In this document: piece after piece, positions 27,376 through 42,624 of the stretch
Layout of the letters: each line of letters begins with the position of its first letter
How positions within the stretch are numbered: position 1 is the stretch's first letter
NCBI GenBank assembly: GCA_024256285.1
Contig: JACGUG010000003.1
Location: 1 to 63,754, forward strand
Direction: 5' to 3'
Origin: an archaeon
GTDB taxonomy: Archaea > Thermoproteota > Nitrososphaeria > Nitrososphaerales > JACAEJ01
Length of the DNA stretch: 63,754 bases
Notes under the pieces: model-generated
Seen by the model: only the letters and a program-made list of their open reading frames with translations
The model's database searches: none
Told to the model about the DNA's origin: nothing
Made by a program: the position numbers and the translations under genes

Positions 27376-28695
27376 TCAAGTTGTAGGGACATCAGTTGAG
27401 CTGTCAAGTGTCGGGACATAAGCTTTTCCTCCAAGCGAATTTAAACCTCTTTGTTGATTGCCCTTTAACAATTCTTTTATTGTAATTGCTCTGATATCTA
27501 AATTACCATGTAATTTCGCCCTTGCTATTTCTTCATAAGCTCCCTTGCTAAAACTGAAGGCTACTATCACACCAATATTCTTCTTAGCACGTCTCATCGC
27601 AGTTTCAAAGTTGTCAACAACGTTTCTTCCAACATTATCCGATTGCTTGACTTGAATCGGATGCCCTTCAAAGGTATAGCCGTCTATGCCCATGTCTGAA
27701 GATTTACGCTTAGAGATTCTTCCAAACAATCTTTTGCAAACCCAATTCTGAAATTCAAAAGGTTGGATTTTCCTAAGATCATCCTCTGTCATGGGCATTC
27801 CCACAAGAACTGGTTTTGCTCCAATCTTTCTCATCCTTGTCTCCATGAGATCGCAAGCTGTCGGCGATACATCAATGCCAATCCATCTCCTGCCTAATTT
27901 ATGGGCAACAACAATCGCAGTTCCACAACCACAGAACGGATCTAAAATAATATCCATAGGATTTGAACCGATAGTTATTATCCTATCTAAAAGTGCAGTC
28001 GGTTTCTGGGTGGGGTAACCTCATTCTTCTTGTTTTCTTTTCACTAAATGCATACCGTATAGTTGTTTAATATCTGACCAAACGGTAGAAAGTGGGACCC
28101 CCTTACTTTCATCAAGGTATTGACGTTCAATTTTTCCAGACTTCCTTTTTCTTGTCCTATATTTTCTTCCCTGTTCATCTATAAAGACAAAACGTTCAGT
28201 CACGTATTTCTTGCTATAAGGTAAATATATTATATTGTAGGTGTGCTGTCCGTATTTTTTGGTATATGATAGAATCGTATCATGAGCTTTAACTGGTTTT
28301 TTCCCCGCCGTTCTACCGCCAGAGGGCGTTCCATAACTCCAGATTACTTCACCTAAGAAATTCTTTTCGCCGAAAACTTCGTCAAACATCACTTTCAGAT
28401 AATGTGAAGCATGCCAATCACAATGAAGGTAGAAAGAGCCTGTATTTTTCAAAACCTTATGGCATTGCTCGACTCTTTCCCTCATCCAAAGAATGTAATT
28501 ATTGATTCCACCCTTCCATCTATCCTCGAAGACTCTCAATTCATACCCATCATGCCAAATAATTTCATAAGTCTTGTTTGAGAAGAATGGGGGGTCAGCG
28601 TAAATCAAATCCACACATTCGTCTGGAAACTTCGCTAAAACTTCTTTGCAATCCCCACAGTAGATCGTGTTTGGTCTGAAATAAGGGAGAGTCAT
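27376..28695 (-). pseudogene. Beta-class N6/N4 DNA methyltransferase fused to an Mrr-like endonuclease domain, interrupted by one in-frame TGA (28021-28023)
   Basis: The two track ORFs share one frame: DPPF...KQEE*GYPTQKP...LDPFCGCGT...WIGID, then FEFQNWV...DMGIDG...IQVKQ (PD-(D/E)xK-like). Confidence 0.85.
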
Positions 28696-33829: not shown

Positions 33830-33961
33830 TATCAATCACCTCCCCCTCAAGTACTGAGTAAGACATCCTAATATATCTTTCTTCAATATTTTAGATATTC
33901 TTTTATTAATATATAATTTACAAAGAAAATCTTATCTAGGAGTTCTTTAATAATCTATGGT

Positions 33962-34435
33962 ATGGATGAGCTGGATTTGAAGATACTCTGTGCTCTTAGG
34001 CTTGATGGCAGAAAACCCTTCCTAGAGTTGGCTAAGGAGCTCGAGGTTTCAGATGCTACCATCCACACTAGGGTTAAAAAGATGATGGAGGAAGGTGTCA
34101 TCAAAGGCTTTGAGACGATAGTAGATGATGGGAAGCTTGGCTATGGGATAACGGCTTTCGTCGAGGTTAGGATCAAACCTGGGACGGCCGATGAAGCGGT
34201 TGCAAAGCTGAGCAGGATAGATGAAGTATTGGAGGTGCATGAGATACATGGGCATTGTGATGTACTCCTGAAGGTTAGGGTGAGGGAACTAACTGAATTG
34301 AGAGATAAGCTGGTTAGAGGAATAAAGACGGTCAAAGAAGTAGTCTCTTGTGAAGCCTATGCTACCTTAAAGGTTGTGAAAGAGGACCATGGCCTATTAC
34401 TTACTCCTCAATTAATTGGTAAAAAATATGATTAA
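33962..34435 (+). CDS. Lrp/AsnC family transcriptional regulator
   Basis: MDELDLKIL...DGRKPFLELAKELEVSDATIHTRVKKM HTH; HEIHGHCDVLLKV RAM domain. Confidence 0.95.
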   Translation: MDELDLKILCALRLDGRKPFLELAKELEVSDATIHTRVKKMMEEGVIKGFETIVDDGKLGYGITAFVEVRIKPGTADEAVAKLSRIDEVLEVHEIHGHCDVLLKVRVRELTELRDKLVRGIKTVKEVVSCEAYATLKVVKEDHGLLLTPQLIGKKYD

Positions 34436-34584
34436 AAATGATTCTGCATGAAATAGCAAAGGATTCTACTATCGTAGTTCGTATATCGATGAAAGTATGG
34501 AATATCTATGTTTGTAAACTTTTTTATATAACCTCTTATGGTATTGTGTGCTAATACGTTGGCAGGCAAAATTTTGCCATTAGG

Positions 34585-36570
34585 ATGATGATGATGGAAA
34601 AATCATCCAAAGAAAAACCTCCGCAAAGAAGAAGATCCAAGGAGACAAAATGCTTTGGTCCTATCCCCCACCTCGAGGAACTCGTTCCTCCGGACTGGTG
34701 GGGGCGCATCTTTAATTCACTTTACCTGAAAACAGATGCAGATCTCGTGGACGATCAGAGCACAACCAGTCGAGAAGTTGATATGTTCTCAAGAATCCTA
34801 AAACTCTCTCCTGAAGATAAGATTCTGGACCTATGTTGTGGTCAGGGGCGCCATTCTCTGGAATTGGCAAGGAGAGGTTTCAAATATGTTGAAGGATTGG
34901 ACCGCTCTCATTATCTGATACAGAGGGCCAAATCATCTGCTAAGAAAGATGGTCTGAATGTTAGATTTAGAGAAGGCGATGCCCGAAAACTGCCATACCC
35001 ACCCGATACCTTTGATGTAGTTTTGATACTGGGGAACAGTTTTGGCTATTTCGATACCATCCAAGACGACCTGAGAGTTTTAGAGGAGATTTTCAGAGTT
35101 TTAAAACCCTGGGGCAAAGTGCTCATCGATGTCGCTGACGGAGAATATCTGAGAAAAAATTTTCAAACTCGCTCTTGGGAATGGATAGATAAAAATTATT
35201 TTGTATGCAGGGAGCGTTCTCTTTCCTTTGATGGAGAGCGTCTGATATCAAGGGAAGTGATTACCCATGTAGAAAAGGGCGTGGTTGCCGACCAGTTCTA
35301 TGCAGAAAGGCTTTACACCAAGGAAAGTCTGACCCAGCTTTTGAAAACAGCAGCCTTCAGTAGTATCTCTCTTGAAGGTGAAATTTCTTCTGATTCCCAG
35401 CGAAATCAGGACCTGGGCATGATGGAGCGCCGTTTAATCTTTACCGCTGTAGTTAAGAGAGAATGGGCGCCCACCAAAAGGAAGCCAAAAGAAGTGGTAA
35501 AGAGGGTGATAGTAATTTTGGGCGACCCTAGTAAACCAGACACTTTAAAGCCCTGCTCCATCTTCGATGACGACGATCTGTATACTATCGATCAGTTGAA
35601 GTCATCTTTGAGAGAACTTAAAGGCTACCAGTTTTCGTATCTGGGCAATCATGATAATTTGATCCAAGAATTGATGAGAATGAAAGGGAAGATCGATTTC
35701 GTTCTTAACCTTTGTGATGAAGGTTATAACAACGATGCCAGAAAAGAGCTCCATATACCTGCCTTGCTGGAGATGCTCGGTATGCCTTATACTGGTTCTG
35801 GACCTCAGTGTCTTGCTTACTGTTATGACAAATCACTTGTGCGTGGAATTGCCAAGGAGATGAAGATTCCTGTGCCTAAAGCCTTCTTTATCAAGCCAGA
35901 AGATAGGACTTTTGAACTTTCCTTTGGCTTTCCTGTTATCGTAAAACCAAACTTTGGTGATTCCAGTTTCGGAATAACGCAGAGGAGTGTGGCAAATAGT
36001 GTAGAGGAGCTTATGGATGCCATTTCTGAAATAAGGGAGAAATTTGGCTATGATAAACCCATTCTTGTTGAGGAATTCCTTACAGGGAAAGACCTCAGTG
36101 TAGGAGTGATAGGAAGTCCTCCCGAATCTTACACAGTCCTACCTATTACTGAGGAAGATTACTCGGAACTTCCACCAGAACTTCCCAGAATCTGCGGTTA
36201 TGAGGCTAAGTGGCTTCCAGAGTCACTTTATTGGAACGTCGAATCCATTCCCGCCCAGCTACCAGGGGAGACAGAGAAGTTCATCGTGGAATGTTGTTTG
36301 AATTTGTTTGAAAGGCTGGAGTGTAGGGATTACTGTCGGTTTGACTGGAGGCTGGATGCTGAGGGGAACCCAAAGCTCCTTGAGGTGAATCCCAATCCAG
36401 GATGGTGCTGGGATGGGCACCTTGCAAAGATGGCAAAAATTGCAGGTATGTCGTACACAGAGATGCTGGCCGCTATTTTAAGAGCAGCCGAACAACGGCT
36501 GGGAATTCAAATAATAGATGGGAAGAGAGAAGAGAGATACGTTATAAAAACTTCGCCTAAAGCAGTGTAA
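34585..36570 (+). CDS. Fusion of a class I SAM methyltransferase and a D-Ala-D-Ala-ligase-like ATP-grasp domain
   Basis: ILDLCCGQGRH, GLD, GDAR and GNSFGY in the N-half; YTGS, YDKS, VKPNFGDSSFG, VEEFL and RFDWR...LLEVNPNPG in the C-half. Confidence 0.88.
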   Translation: MMMMEKSSKEKPPQRRRSKETKCFGPIPHLEELVPPDWWGRIFNSLYLKTDADLVDDQSTTSREVDMFSRILKLSPEDKILDLCCGQGRHSLELARRGFKYVEGLDRSHYLIQRAKSSAKKDGLNVRFREGDARKLPYPPDTFDVVLILGNSFGYFDTIQDDLRVLEEIFRVLKPWGKVLIDVADGEYLRKNFQTRSWEWIDKNYFVCRERSLSFDGERLISREVITHVEKGVVADQFYAERLYTKESLTQLLKTAAFSSISLEGEISSDSQRNQDLGMMERRLIFTAVVKREWAPTKRKPKEVVKRVIVILGDPSKPDTLKPCSIFDDDDLYTIDQLKSSLRELKGYQFSYLGNHDNLIQELMRMKGKIDFVLNLCDEGYNNDARKELHIPALLEMLGMPYTGSGPQCLAYCYDKSLVRGIAKEMKIPVPKAFFIKPEDRTFELSFGFPVIVKPNFGDSSFGITQRSVANSVEELMDAISEIREKFGYDKPILVEEFLTGKDLSVGVIGSPPESYTVLPITEEDYSELPPELPRICGYEAKWLPESLYWNVESIPAQLPGETEKFIVECCLNLFERLECRDYCRFDWRLDAEGNPKLLEVNPNPGWCWDGHLAKMAKIAGMSYTEMLAAILRAAEQRLGIQIIDGKREERYVIKTSPKAV

Positions 36571-36590
36571 TGTAATATAATGTAATGTAA
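36566..36590 (+). repeat. Pentamer tandem repeat T(G/A)TAA x5
   Basis: TGTAA TGTAA TATAA TGTAA TGTAA, starting at the stop codon of the fusion gene. Confidence 0.8.
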
Positions 36591-36848
36591 AAGACCAACG
36601 CTCCGTCCAAATTCTGTTACATAAAACTTCTAAAACGACAACTGGAGATAATAAGATGGGTTCGTAAAAAGTTTCTGAAAAAAATTAATAGGGGCCTAAG
36701 TTATATCTTATTTGGTCTTAATGGCGTTCAGCGTTGTTCGACGGGCGAACTGACCTATCTTGGGATGACGATCTAAGCGCTGTTCGCCAAGAAAGCCACT
36801 ACAAATCTGACAAGACTTAAATCGTTAAATATTTCTCAAAAGAAATTT

Positions 36849-36923
36849 GGGCCGGTAGTCCAGTTTGGTAGTGACGCCGTCTTCGCAAGGCGGAGATCGC
36901 GGGTTCGAATCCCGCCCGGTCCA
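36849..36923 (+). tRNA. tRNA-Ala(CGC), intronless
   Basis: GGGCCGG/CCGGTCC acceptor with G3:U70, loop TTCGCAA, GGTTCGAATCC T-arm, A73. Confidence 0.95.
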
Positions 36924-37114
36924 CTCTTAATTGAGTGCTGAAGAGAGGCTGTGATTATCGATGATACTTCTGTGCAATTTCATACTTCTTTGTGTACTTT
37001 TTGGGATTTCTTTCAAATTCAGCTTTACAAAGCTCCGAGCAAAAGTAGTAAGTATGGATAGGCTCATCAGGACTATTACAAACCATTTATGAGTATAAAT
37101 TTGAAATTATCACC

Positions 37115-40459: not shown

Positions 40460-41500
40460 ATGGAAAAGGAGGCCATGGCCTACACGAGGCTTACTGGCAC
40501 AGATGTGAAGTGTAAACTCTGCCCAAGAGGTTGCACCATAAAGAACTCGAAGAGGGGTGTATGCAGAGTTAGGGAGAACAGAGACGGGGCCCTCTTCACT
40601 CTGATCTACGGCACAACCACAGCAGAGGCTATCGACCCTATAGAGAAGAAGCCCTTATTCCATTTCTGGCCTGGTAGCGATACATATTCGATATCGACTC
40701 TATCATGCACTCTATTCTGTCCATGGTGCCAGAACTGGGAGATAAGCCAAGCATCTCCTAAAGAGGTTCATTCCCATGAGAACACCCCTGAGGGAGTAGT
40801 CAAGAGGGCTCTTGAATCGGGCTCCAGGTCTATCTCCTACACATACAACGAGCCCCTCCTCTGGTATGAATTCGTCTATGAAACATCCAAGGTCGCAAGG
40901 GAGGATAAAGTTCACAATATACTGGTCACAAACGGTTACATAACAGAGGAAGCCCTCCTACCTTTGGTCAAGTACATAGATGCTGCGAACGTCGATATAA
41001 AGGGCTTTACCGAAGATTTCTACCGTACTTATTGTAGGGGCGGTTTGGAGCCTGTCCTCTTGGCAACGAAATTGATGAAGAGGGAAAGCACACATGTAGA
41101 AGTGACGAACCTGATAATCCCCGGCATCAACGACTCCTTGGAAGAAATAAGACAGCTTGTAACATGGGTAAGGGACAGCCTGGGTTCAGAGACACCTCTA
41201 CACTTCTCGCGCTTCTTCCCCCACTATAAGATGACAGATACACATGCAACCCCCTTTGAAACTCTGTTAAAGGCGAAGGAGATCGCTGAGGAAGAGGGGT
41301 TGCAATTTGTCTACATAGGGAACGTGGCGAGCGAAGGCGAAAATACCTACTGCCCGAACTGTAGACATCTTCTGATAAGAAGGATGGGTTTCGATGTCCT
41401 CAAGGTCGATCTATCAGAGGATAAGAGGTGCCCCAACTGTGGATTCAAGATCAATATAGTGGGCGAGGTCAATACTAGGAGTTTCATCAGATGGTGGTAA
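40460..41500 (+). CDS. AmmeMemoRadiSam-type radical SAM enzyme
   Basis: CKLCPRGC...CRVR, IDPIEKKPLFHFWPG, CTLFCPWCQNWEISQ, YTYNEP, TYCPNC. Confidence 0.9.
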   Translation: MEKEAMAYTRLTGTDVKCKLCPRGCTIKNSKRGVCRVRENRDGALFTLIYGTTTAEAIDPIEKKPLFHFWPGSDTYSISTLSCTLFCPWCQNWEISQASPKEVHSHENTPEGVVKRALESGSRSISYTYNEPLLWYEFVYETSKVAREDKVHNILVTNGYITEEALLPLVKYIDAANVDIKGFTEDFYRTYCRGGLEPVLLATKLMKRESTHVEVTNLIIPGINDSLEEIRQLVTWVRDSLGSETPLHFSRFFPHYKMTDTHATPFETLLKAKEIAEEEGLQFVYIGNVASEGENTYCPNCRHLLIRRMGFDVLKVDLSEDKRCPNCGFKINIVGEVNTRSFIRWW

Positions 41501-41547
41501 TTGCAGATTTTGTAAGTTTGTAATAATTATAGGGATGGTTAGTTAGA

Positions 41548-42624
41548 ATGTGGAGAGCTTTCCGCCCAGATTCTATAACTGTGCTCTACGATAAGAAGTG
41601 CAGAGCCTCCTTATCACGATACTTCGATATAATCTTCGATAAGAAGATGGCAAAGTTCAAGCTCTTGAAGACCTTTCCCTCAGACTTTCAAGGCAAGAGC
41701 ACGGCTGAGATGTGGAAGTTACATAATAAGATGGCCGAAGATTTCAAGGACTATGTAAAAGAGGTCGATTCTGGCAGAGAGGCTGATCTTGCCGAGAGGA
41801 GTCTGCTGGACCTAAAGATTTTCTTGGCAAAGAAGACGCTCGAGAGGTGTACATTCTGCATGCATGCCTGTGCGGTCAACAGATTAAGAGGCGAAACGAA
41901 GTACTGTGGTTGCAGTATGGACTTCCCAGTCTCGACCATGTTCGACCATTATGGAGAAGAGCCTGAACTCGTACCATCCTTCACCGTCTTCACTGTGGGT
42001 TGCAGTATGAGGTGTCTTCACTGCCAGAACTGGACCATCAGCCAATGGAAAGAGAGAGGTACTCTCTACGAGTTTGAAGAAGTAGCGAGGCAGGCAGATA
42101 AAGCCAGATTAAGAGGTTGCAGAAACTTGAACATGGTAGGGGGAGAGCCCACGCCTTACCTCTATCACTGGTTGGAGGTATCGAGGTCGATCAAGGAGAA
42201 CATACCCATCGTCTGGAACTCCAATAGCTACTATAGCCATCCTTCTTCAAGACTTCTGGCTGAGTGGGTCGATGTCTACCTCCTGGACTTCAAGTATGGA
42301 AACAACGACTGTGCTGTAAGGATATCTGATGCACCTAACTATTGGGAGGCCTGTACAAGAAACCATCTCATGGCAAAAGAGCACGGAGAGTTGATAATCC
42401 GAGTATTGGTTCTACCGGACCATGTAGACTGCTGCTTCAGACCCATAGTGGAGTGGATAGCCAAGAACTTGGGAAGAGATACTAGGGTCAATGTCATGTG
42501 GCAGTATACTCCTCATTGGAGGGCTCATGAGATACCAGAGCTAAGGAGAAGGCTCAAAAGAGACGAGATGGAGCAGACGATACATATCGCAAAAGAGGTT
42601 GGACTGGAGAATTTCATCACATGA
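41548..42624 (+). CDS. PflX-like radical SAM protein
   Basis: CTFCMHACAVNR, HYGEEPEL, CSMRCLHCQNWTISQ, VGGEPTP, YLLDFKYGN, RVLVLP. Confidence 0.88.
   Translation: MWRAFRPDSITVLYDKKCRASLSRYFDIIFDKKMAKFKLLKTFPSDFQGKSTAEMWKLHNKMAEDFKDYVKEVDSGREADLAERSLLDLKIFLAKKTLERCTFCMHACAVNRLRGETKYCGCSMDFPVSTMFDHYGEEPELVPSFTVFTVGCSMRCLHCQNWTISQWKERGTLYEFEEVARQADKARLRGCRNLNMVGGEPTPYLYHWLEVSRSIKENIPIVWNSNSYYSHPSSRLLAEWVDVYLLDFKYGNNDCAVRISDAPNYWEACTRNHLMAKEHGELIIRVLVLPDHVDCCFRPIVEWIAKNLGRDTRVNVMWQYTPHWRAHEIPELRRRLKRDEMEQTIHIAKEVGLENFIT

Follow-up and report, generated by a model that had tools for sequence, protein, structure and literature searches.

The 63,754-nucleotide stretch of archaeal DNA analysed here (the window) carries an open reading frame (ORF; 34585..36570, + strand) whose 661-amino-acid product joins a class I S-adenosylmethionine (SAM)-dependent methyltransferase half to an ATP-grasp ligase half with the fold of D-alanine--D-alanine ligases (Ddl). 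We propose with moderate confidence that this fusion is a bifunctional enzyme, in which ATP-dependent formation of an aminoacyl-amide (dipeptide-like) bond is followed by SAM-dependent N-methylation. The ATP-grasp domain would activate a carboxylate as an acyl-phosphate with ATP and join the acyl group to an amine. Rather than D-alanine, it would probably accept L-amino acids, glycine or some other amino compound; what it releases would be a dipeptide-like aminoacyl-amide small molecule, and the methyltransferase half, similar to NmbA and glycine N-methyltransferase (GNMT), would use SAM to N-methylate a free amine of either this product or a substrate. A one-protein ligate-and-methylate route is the best reading because both domains look competent and coupled, the ligase does not appear to be a D-Ala:D-Ala ligase, and the closest characterised relatives of the methyltransferase half are N-methyltransferases acting on amines of small molecules or peptides. 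On these same grounds we retain the enzymatic core of a preliminary description of this DNA, which had suggested a one-protein pathway to a methylated dipeptide or amide; its link to an adjacent Lrp regulator was not supported. The predicted layout of the fusion is as follows:

34585..34653 (+): basic disordered N-terminal tail, amino acids (aa) 1-23; predicted local distance difference test (pLDDT) score <50 at aa 1-20
34654..35454 (+): class I SAM-dependent methyltransferase half with a beta-strand cap, NmbA/GNMT-like by Pfam, PDB and Foldseek, aa 24-290
35455..35499 (+): variable inter-domain linker, aa 291-305; pLDDT <50 at aa 294-302
35500..36510 (+): three-domain Ddl-fold ATP-grasp ligase half with an altered substrate pocket, aa 306-642
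36511..36570 (+): variable C-terminal tail and stop codon, aa 643-661; pLDDT <50, 8% identity across homologues

The ORF, its Pfam matches and its catalytic residues confirm the two-domain gene that had been described 149 bp 3' of an Lrp/AsnC gene, and the motifs and catalytic residues of both halves are kept, so that neither domain looks inactive. An AlphaFold2 model built on 62 homologues (mean pLDDT 80) consists of two well-folded halves separated by the disordered linker and flanked by the disordered tails at the residues given above. A single zero-difference contig of sequencing run X1 spans positions 33900-36700, and two contigs come from a mangrove metagenome that is independent of it (X2): the first (34237-35426) leads from the 3' end of the Lrp gene into the methyltransferase half, and the second (35397-35792) crosses the domain junction. 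Because independent metagenome contigs span both the Lrp-fusion and the inter-domain junctions, the fusion is no artefact of assembly, a concern that the preliminary description had raised. The ORF opens with four ATG codons in a row (34585-34596); the database copy of the same protein (P0001) has 659 aa, its start having been called at the third ATG, and the start of the closest orthologue (L092) is likewise ATGATGATGATAATG.

The methyltransferase half matches Pfam Methyltransf_25/31/11 at aa 76-185 (E 6e-22 for Methyltransf_25), with six Pfam class I methyltransferase models exceeding their cut-offs. It shows the marks of a class I enzyme, a Rossmann-like fold with acidic residues where beta2 and beta3 end, and has both SAM motif I (ILDLCCGQGRH) and motif IV (ILGNSFGYF), which hardly vary in the family; residues L81, D82, C85, G86, G88, D106, N151, S152, G154, Y155 and F156 are conserved and D132 is near-invariant in the 62 homologues, and 65 of 250 columns are invariant across phyla. 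The top PDB sequence match is CtNmbA (9RI2; E 2e-23, aa 61-267, 30% identity over 198 residues), which lies eight orders of magnitude ahead of the other solved structures; it is followed by MitM, glycine/sarcosine N-methyltransferase (GSMT) and CypM, all of which act on amines, CypM methylating a peptide N-terminus. The predicted fold was matched by Foldseek to 3D2L, the top structural neighbour listed by the NmbA authors (PMC12719100). For NmbA of Chlorobaculum tepidum, N-methylation of bacillithiol at the alpha-amine of its cysteine was demonstrated in 2025, and the enzyme was presented as a new class of N-directed natural-product methyltransferases that have a four-strand cap (PMC12719100). 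The alignment extends through the cap domain, the SFGYF motif is common to both proteins and the cap arginines R211, R219 and R242 align with arginines of NmbA. Unlike the window methyltransferase, which is fused to a ligase, NmbA, of 266 aa, is a separate protein that serves the BshA/B/C pathway, and its authors reported no archaea or eukaryotes with BshA-C (PMC12719100). Since identity is only 30%, the methyltransferase half is best placed in a family related to NmbA rather than taken for NmbA itself.

The ligase half contains a Pfam Dala_Dala_lig_C domain (aa 443-632, E 2e-28), and NCBIfam Ddl models align over aa 346-637; the best of them, NF002378, reaches 128.6 bits versus a cut-off of 243, and every NCBIfam Ddl and Van model scores under its cut-off on this half. 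Foldseek comparison with full-length Ddl chains gave template modelling scores of 0.80-0.84 relative to the target (E 7e-21 to 1e-17, about 345 columns). Residues were mapped onto Escherichia coli DdlB by phmmer alignment to 1IOV/2DLN. The counterparts of K97, K144, S150/S151, E180, K215, R255, D257, E270 and N272, which serve ATP/Mg binding and catalysis, are all kept, and the columns of the catalytic residues are invariant or near-invariant in the 62 homologues. The positions that select D-alanine in DdlB are changed: Y216 corresponds to W543 (within CGYEAKW), S281/L282, assigned to the second D-Ala, to G611/H612 (within NPNPGWCWDGH), and the N-terminal GGxSxEHEVS loop, which carries E15, to VILGDPxKPD...FDDDD. 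Of the E15/S150/Y216 triad, S150 alone is retained. The motifs that replace the D-Ala-selecting residues are invariant across the family, and 104 of the 337 columns of the ligase half are invariant as well.

The window ligase resembles the Ddl/Van enzymes (DdlB, DdlA, VanA; EC 6.3.2.4; PF07478) in its three-domain ATP-grasp fold and its ATP/Mg and catalytic residues, and presumably, by analogy, in proceeding through an acyl-phosphate intermediate. It differs from them in being only 21-24% identical, in a longer omega loop rich in aromatic residues and Cys, in its fusion to a methyltransferase and in lying outside any mur/dcw context, no mur genes being found near the fusion gene in the window. 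No match to alanine racemase (PF01168) or Asp/Glu racemase (PF01177) was obtained in the 95%-complete genome, the control genomes being matched. Because the D-Ala-selecting residues are changed and the genome is without alanine or Asp/Glu racemase, the ligase half is predicted to be catalytically competent as an ATP-grasp amide ligase without being a D-Ala:D-Ala ligase.

Evidence for the coupling of the two halves comes from a metagenome contig (L091) with a split form, in which a 300-aa methyltransferase, 53% identical to aa 8-302 of the fusion, precedes, with a gene overlap of 4 nt, a 348-aa ligase that keeps all family motifs. The split point corresponds exactly to the variable linker, a segment with a mean identity of 41% and 1 invariant column among homologues. 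Since the split form keeps adjacent and overlapping genes, it supports the view that the halves are functionally coupled and probably belong to a shared pathway. All ORFs of 80 homologous loci were clustered to survey the neighbourhood, and the only recurring neighbours were ffh-rpsP-trmD, located upstream in 10-12 of the 80 loci, apparently in Planctomycetota. The fusion directly follows trmD in L014, L033, L037, L038, L047, L050, L052, L061 and others (mostly Planctomycetota), the junctions often being a 4-nt overlap or a gap of <20 nt; this organization implies a likely co-translation with translation-apparatus genes, in Planctomycetota only. Neighbours are oriented at random, half of them sharing the strand of the fusion gene; those in tight coupling with it are of diverse kinds, and the contexts in Thermotoga, Methanosarcinales and Methylarchaceae have nothing in common. 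In two bacterial loci (L015 7971-8864 and L019 5091-5981) the fusion is tightly coupled to a gene whose N-terminus, judged by eye, is RimK-like or alpha-L-glutamate-ligase-like. Neither a conserved partner gene nor a precursor peptide was found in the homologous loci surveyed, and an Rfam scan of 20 loci (135 kb) for riboswitches gave only a tRNA. The lack of a partner gene, precursor peptide, riboswitch or extra domains in these surveys fits a self-contained pathway, the fusion gene being a stand-alone, usually monocistronic unit. The contexts of stand-alone halves are mostly too short to inform. In L111 1631-3747 (Logan SRR25569783), the gene of one stand-alone methyltransferase, 44% identical to the methyltransferase half, has a LysR regulator upstream of it and, 0.7 kb further downstream, an AdoMet decarboxylase gene (PF02675); a polyamine connection was considered from this single weak hint and not adopted.

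From these data we infer a small-molecule substrate, the order of the steps and an amine as the methyl acceptor. Ligation is placed before N-methylation because the type of substrate that NmbA uses, an amino acid with an amide-linked carboxylate and a free alpha-amine, is the type of product expected of a Ddl-like ligase. More tentatively, it can be speculated that the family makes an undescribed N-methylated aminoacyl-amide in one polypeptide, which by analogy with NmbA and N-methyl-bacillithiol might act as a low-molecular-weight thiol or redox buffer, or else as a compatible solute. If so, such a metabolite would be common to anaerobic sediment bacteria (>20 phyla), methanogens, Asgard and Thermoproteota archaea, choanoflagellates and zoosporic fungi, and coupling of the two active sites, or channelling from one to the other, would account for the near-invariance of the sequence.

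Comparable pairings are known. Ngg combines a GNAT domain with an ATP-grasp domain to make the osmolyte N-acetylglutaminylglutamine amide (NAGGN), and GshF combines gamma-glutamylcysteine synthetase (gamma-GCS) with a Ddl-like ATP-grasp domain to make glutathione. Carnosine synthase plus carnosine N-methyltransferase lead to anserine (PMC3660329). All of them share with the window fusion an ATP-grasp amide ligase that is accompanied by a tailoring or partner activity and the template-free production of a dipeptide-like solute, thiol or buffer; they differ from it in their partner domains and have no detectable close sequence relationship to it, so that the resemblance is one of mechanism, not of membership. 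GshF, which is in the PDB, was not among the matches of the ligase half at E <=0.001. The AshB-type ATP-grasp enzymes, which make thiohistidine dipeptides (PMC13674229), were also compared: they are likewise dipeptide ligases that lead to a small redox-active dipeptide, with a methyltransferase domain in the same cluster, but that domain has been reported as inactive or vestigial and AshB is clustered with a sulfoxide synthase (PMC13674229), a neighbour that the window fusion does not have. This system was rejected as unrelated.

The gene is no local oddity of a TACK (Thaumarchaeota, Aigarchaeota, Crenarchaeota and Korarchaeota) archaeon but a member of a family of thousands across the three domains of life. 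A word-indexed search retrieved >5,500 homologues of the fusion. The best 120 of these matches are all full-length fusions (636-731 aa, 71-87% identity), with Thermotoga, Syntrophobacter, Actinomycetota, Methanosarcinales and Jordarchaeaceae among their sources, and the closest homologue among the matches listed is from Candidatus Methylarchaceae archaeon HK02M2 (87%). In a scan with one genome per species, the genomes of at least 595 species, belonging to >20 bacterial and archaeal phyla, were found to encode relatives; the best 80 of these relatives are 66-75% identical and come from Planctomycetota, Atribacterota, Thermodesulfobacteriota, Spirochaetota, Cloacimonadota, Sumerlaeota, Chloroflexota and Patescibacteria, on the bacterial side, and from Asgard archaea, Methanoculleus, Halobacteria and Nitrososphaerota. 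In an exhaustive HMMER search of 50%-identity representatives the main family collapses to essentially one representative, the further ones being divergent fusions (37-57%), stand-alone ligase halves (P0155, P0161) and stand-alone methyltransferase halves (P0207, P0238). Eukaryotic relatives, longer and all annotated as hypothetical, occur in the choanoflagellate Monosiga brevicollis, the chytrids Gonapodya and Polyrhizophydium and the blastoclads Paraphysoderma and Blastocladiella. No added domains were detected in ten longer relatives (654-1143 aa), which contain the same two domains with longer linkers. A 1210-aa protein of Candidatus Lokiarchaeia (P0141, HMF33764.1) joins an NTPase-like region and leucine-rich repeats to a ligase half that is 55% identical and retains every motif, an architecture resembling signalling or conflict-system proteins; as a clue to the substrate it was uninformative and was dropped. 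Literature searches retrieved no study of the methyltransferase-ligase architecture and no characterised homologue.

The conservation of the family is old. A maximum-likelihood tree of 80 proteins is star-like, with a very short backbone and archaea interleaved with bacteria, and phylum-level groups are coherent in it (15 Planctomycetota, 8 Atribacterota, 4 Methanoculleus, 3 Spirochaetota). Between the window protein and representatives of other phyla, amino acid identity is 66-76% and identity at fourfold-degenerate sites is 0.20-0.42, that is, saturated; a synonymous signal is retained only in the 87% orthologue (0.69). The saturation of these sites at such protein identities indicates old divergences and very slow protein evolution, and a recent horizontal sweep was rejected as the cause of the high identity on account of it and of the coherent phylum-level clades. 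The two halves are equally constrained (mean identity 73% for the methyltransferase and 75% for the ligase), with linker and tails varying freely, and both are under very strong selective constraint. In the phylum of the window a full-length copy is present in 12 of 151 genomes, and in none of the 19 same-order genomes listed; the in-phylum copies (46-66%) are more distant from the window protein than many bacterial ones. Because the distribution is patchy and the in-phylum copies are so distant, the archaeal lineage of the window most likely acquired the fusion gene horizontally. No plasmid or phage records with the fusion were found.

The regulation of the window gene was the other element of the preliminary description, which had tied the fusion to the amino-acid-sensing regulator encoded upstream on the same strand, across a 149-bp spacer (34436-34584). 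The features concerned are:

33962..34435 (+): gene of an Lrp/AsnC-family transcription regulator, 157 aa, with Pfam HTH_24, HTH_AsnC-type and AsnC_trans_reg
34507..34528 (+): conserved block TATGTTTGTAAACTTTTTTATA with a transcription factor B recognition element (BRE)/TATA-like element, putative promoter of the fusion gene
34565..34578 (strand-neutral): perfect 14-bp palindrome GGCAAAATTTTGCC, separated from the downstream start codon by 6 nt, candidate operator at which a dimeric regulator could bind

The regulator scores under the cut-offs of all NCBIfam AsnC/LysM/Lrp models. The palindrome lies between the TATA-like box and the start codon, has an AT-rich centre and is unique both in the window and in the 1.48-Mb genome; a search for a regulon gave six sites with 2 mismatches, mostly inside genes, and this idea was abandoned. 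Upstream of the L092 orthologue (87%) the block at 34507..34528 is identical except for one T, the flanking intergenic sequence having diverged, and the palindrome is perfectly kept within an 18-nt block, the spacer between it and the TATA-like box being only ~40% identical. The conserved TATA and palindrome blocks are a phylogenetic footprint, in which the former is likely the promoter of the fusion gene itself and the latter a candidate operator.

That the adjacent Lrp is a dedicated amino-acid-sensing regulator acting at this palindrome is conceivable but, on balance, doubtful. The proximity and shared strand of the two genes, and the adjacency seen again in the independent metagenome, speak for it, as does a genome-unique, footprint-conserved palindrome ahead of the fusion gene whose shape agrees with that of archaeal Lrp operators, which are 13-17-bp palindromes with AT-rich centres. 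Nevertheless, the palindrome is equally conserved in L092, where the fusion gene has different neighbours and no adjacent Lrp and where no orthologue of the window Lrp was found, the best Lrp homologue of that genome, whose assembly may be incomplete, being only 32% identical; no similar palindrome precedes the Lrp gene itself; a tblastn search of the Lrp against ~85 homologous loci gave a single distant match (L027), that is, adjacency in 1 of ~85 loci; and the fusion gene has its own putative promoter block. The Lrp neighbour is probably a lineage-specific accident, or at most a local regulator, and the proposed link is not borne out by comparison. The window gene is an ordinary intact member of its family to which the Lrp story adds little, and the operator-like palindrome provides a testable handle on its regulation.

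Several observations weigh against the ligate-and-methylate proposal. The relative placement of the two halves is undefined in the AlphaFold2 model (predicted template modelling score, pTM, 0.53). Identities of 66-76% across domains of life are unusually high for a small-molecule enzyme and, with synonymous sites saturated, might indicate a conserved macromolecular substrate or partner. The N-terminal tail is conserved in its basic character (median 24 aa and 27% K+R, versus 14% overall, across 75 homologues, with a net charge of at least +4 in 58 of the 75), a character typically linked to the binding of nucleic acids, membranes or acidic proteins. P0157 (51%), a relative that consists of the ligase alone, is part of a murD-ftsW-murG cluster (L090 2025-12189). 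Finally, transcription of the Methanoculleus orthologue, which speaks for the proposal, is indicated by exact RNA contigs in anaerobic-digester metatranscriptomes, but these contigs are of low depth and the metatranscriptomes could contain DNA.

The alternative that fares best is that the enzyme modifies a conserved macromolecule. In the manner of RimK and tubulin-tyrosine ligase it might, for example, attach an amino acid to the end or a side chain of a protein, or else its target might be an RNA nucleoside, and in either case it would also methylate that target. Its extreme conservation across three domains with saturated synonymous sites, the disordered basic tail, the activity of CypM, a relative of the methyltransferase half, on a peptide N-terminus and the frequent translational coupling of the gene downstream of ffh-rpsP-trmD in Planctomycetota would all agree with this. 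We nevertheless hold it to be unlikely: for both halves, the substrates of the nearest relatives are small molecules, the loci have no conserved neighbour that could encode a target or precursor, the patchy spread (12 of 151 genomes in the phylum of the window) is unlike that of the modification of a universal component, and the trmD linkage is confined to one phylum.

Much less probable still is that the ligase acts on a cell-envelope precursor, such as a peptidoglycan-like stem or cross-bridge peptide or an amino lipid, which the methyltransferase then tailors. The Ddl fold, a basic tail that could bind acidic membranes and the setting of P0157, which has the same signature motifs and shares its cluster with murD, ftsW, murG, a MurL-like gene and a double ATP-grasp gene, are set against the presence of the fusion in many archaea and eukaryotes without peptidoglycan, the absence of racemases from the window genome and the restriction of the mur context to one contig family, the other 80 loci sharing no envelope genes. 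In the unusual, dcw-type cluster of L090 (ENA ERZ25039527 contig_82464) the gene order is murD, ftsW, murG, P0157, a 458-aa MurL-like protein, an 807-aa ATP-grasp protein and a 356-aa protein; the 458-aa protein has weak similarity to MurL epimerase, and the 807-aa one combines a carbamoyl-phosphate synthetase (CPSase)-like ATP-grasp with a more canonical Ddl domain, which suggests that this bacterium may have a non-canonical stem-peptide chemistry. That the two domains share a polypeptide but no pathway, each with a reaction unrelated to the other's, as their poorly predicted orientation (pTM 0.53) and the stand-alone versions of each half would allow, is the least probable of all, given a fusion kept in thousands of sequences from three domains with equal constraint on its halves, and a split form that retains overlap and gene order.

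Returning to the bifunctional enzyme, its building blocks are textbook ones, but their combination is one of the larger conserved families without a known product, with thousands of members in all three domains and an identity of ~70% between bacteria and archaea that is above that of most universal proteins. Were the product identified, subsurface anaerobes, Asgard archaea and early-branching opisthokonts would gain a metabolite or a modification in their known biochemistry, and the widespread label "D-alanine--D-alanine ligase" would be corrected for proteins of organisms without peptidoglycan.

The surroundings of the gene had been described as a region of decayed accessory genes. This holds only in part: it applies to one N6_N4 DNA methylase, split in the window at 27376-28695 (-) between ORF 28021-28695, which covers profile positions 1-148, and ORF 27376-27957, which contains the last 37 profile positions followed by a Mrr_cat restriction-endonuclease domain; a restriction-modification gene has here been either disrupted or rearranged, and no other gene close to the fusion is clearly decayed. 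The immediate neighbours, which encode a LUD-domain protein, the Lrp, a Rieske protein, tRNA-Ala, phosphoribosyl pyrophosphate (PRPP) synthetase and the pst operon, are apparently intact. The tRNA-Ala (anticodon CGC; 36849-36924, +), located 279 bp 3' of the fusion gene, is the sole tRNA in the window, and two neighbouring radical-SAM genes (346 and 358 aa; 40460-42624, +) lie beside the PRPP synthetase gene.

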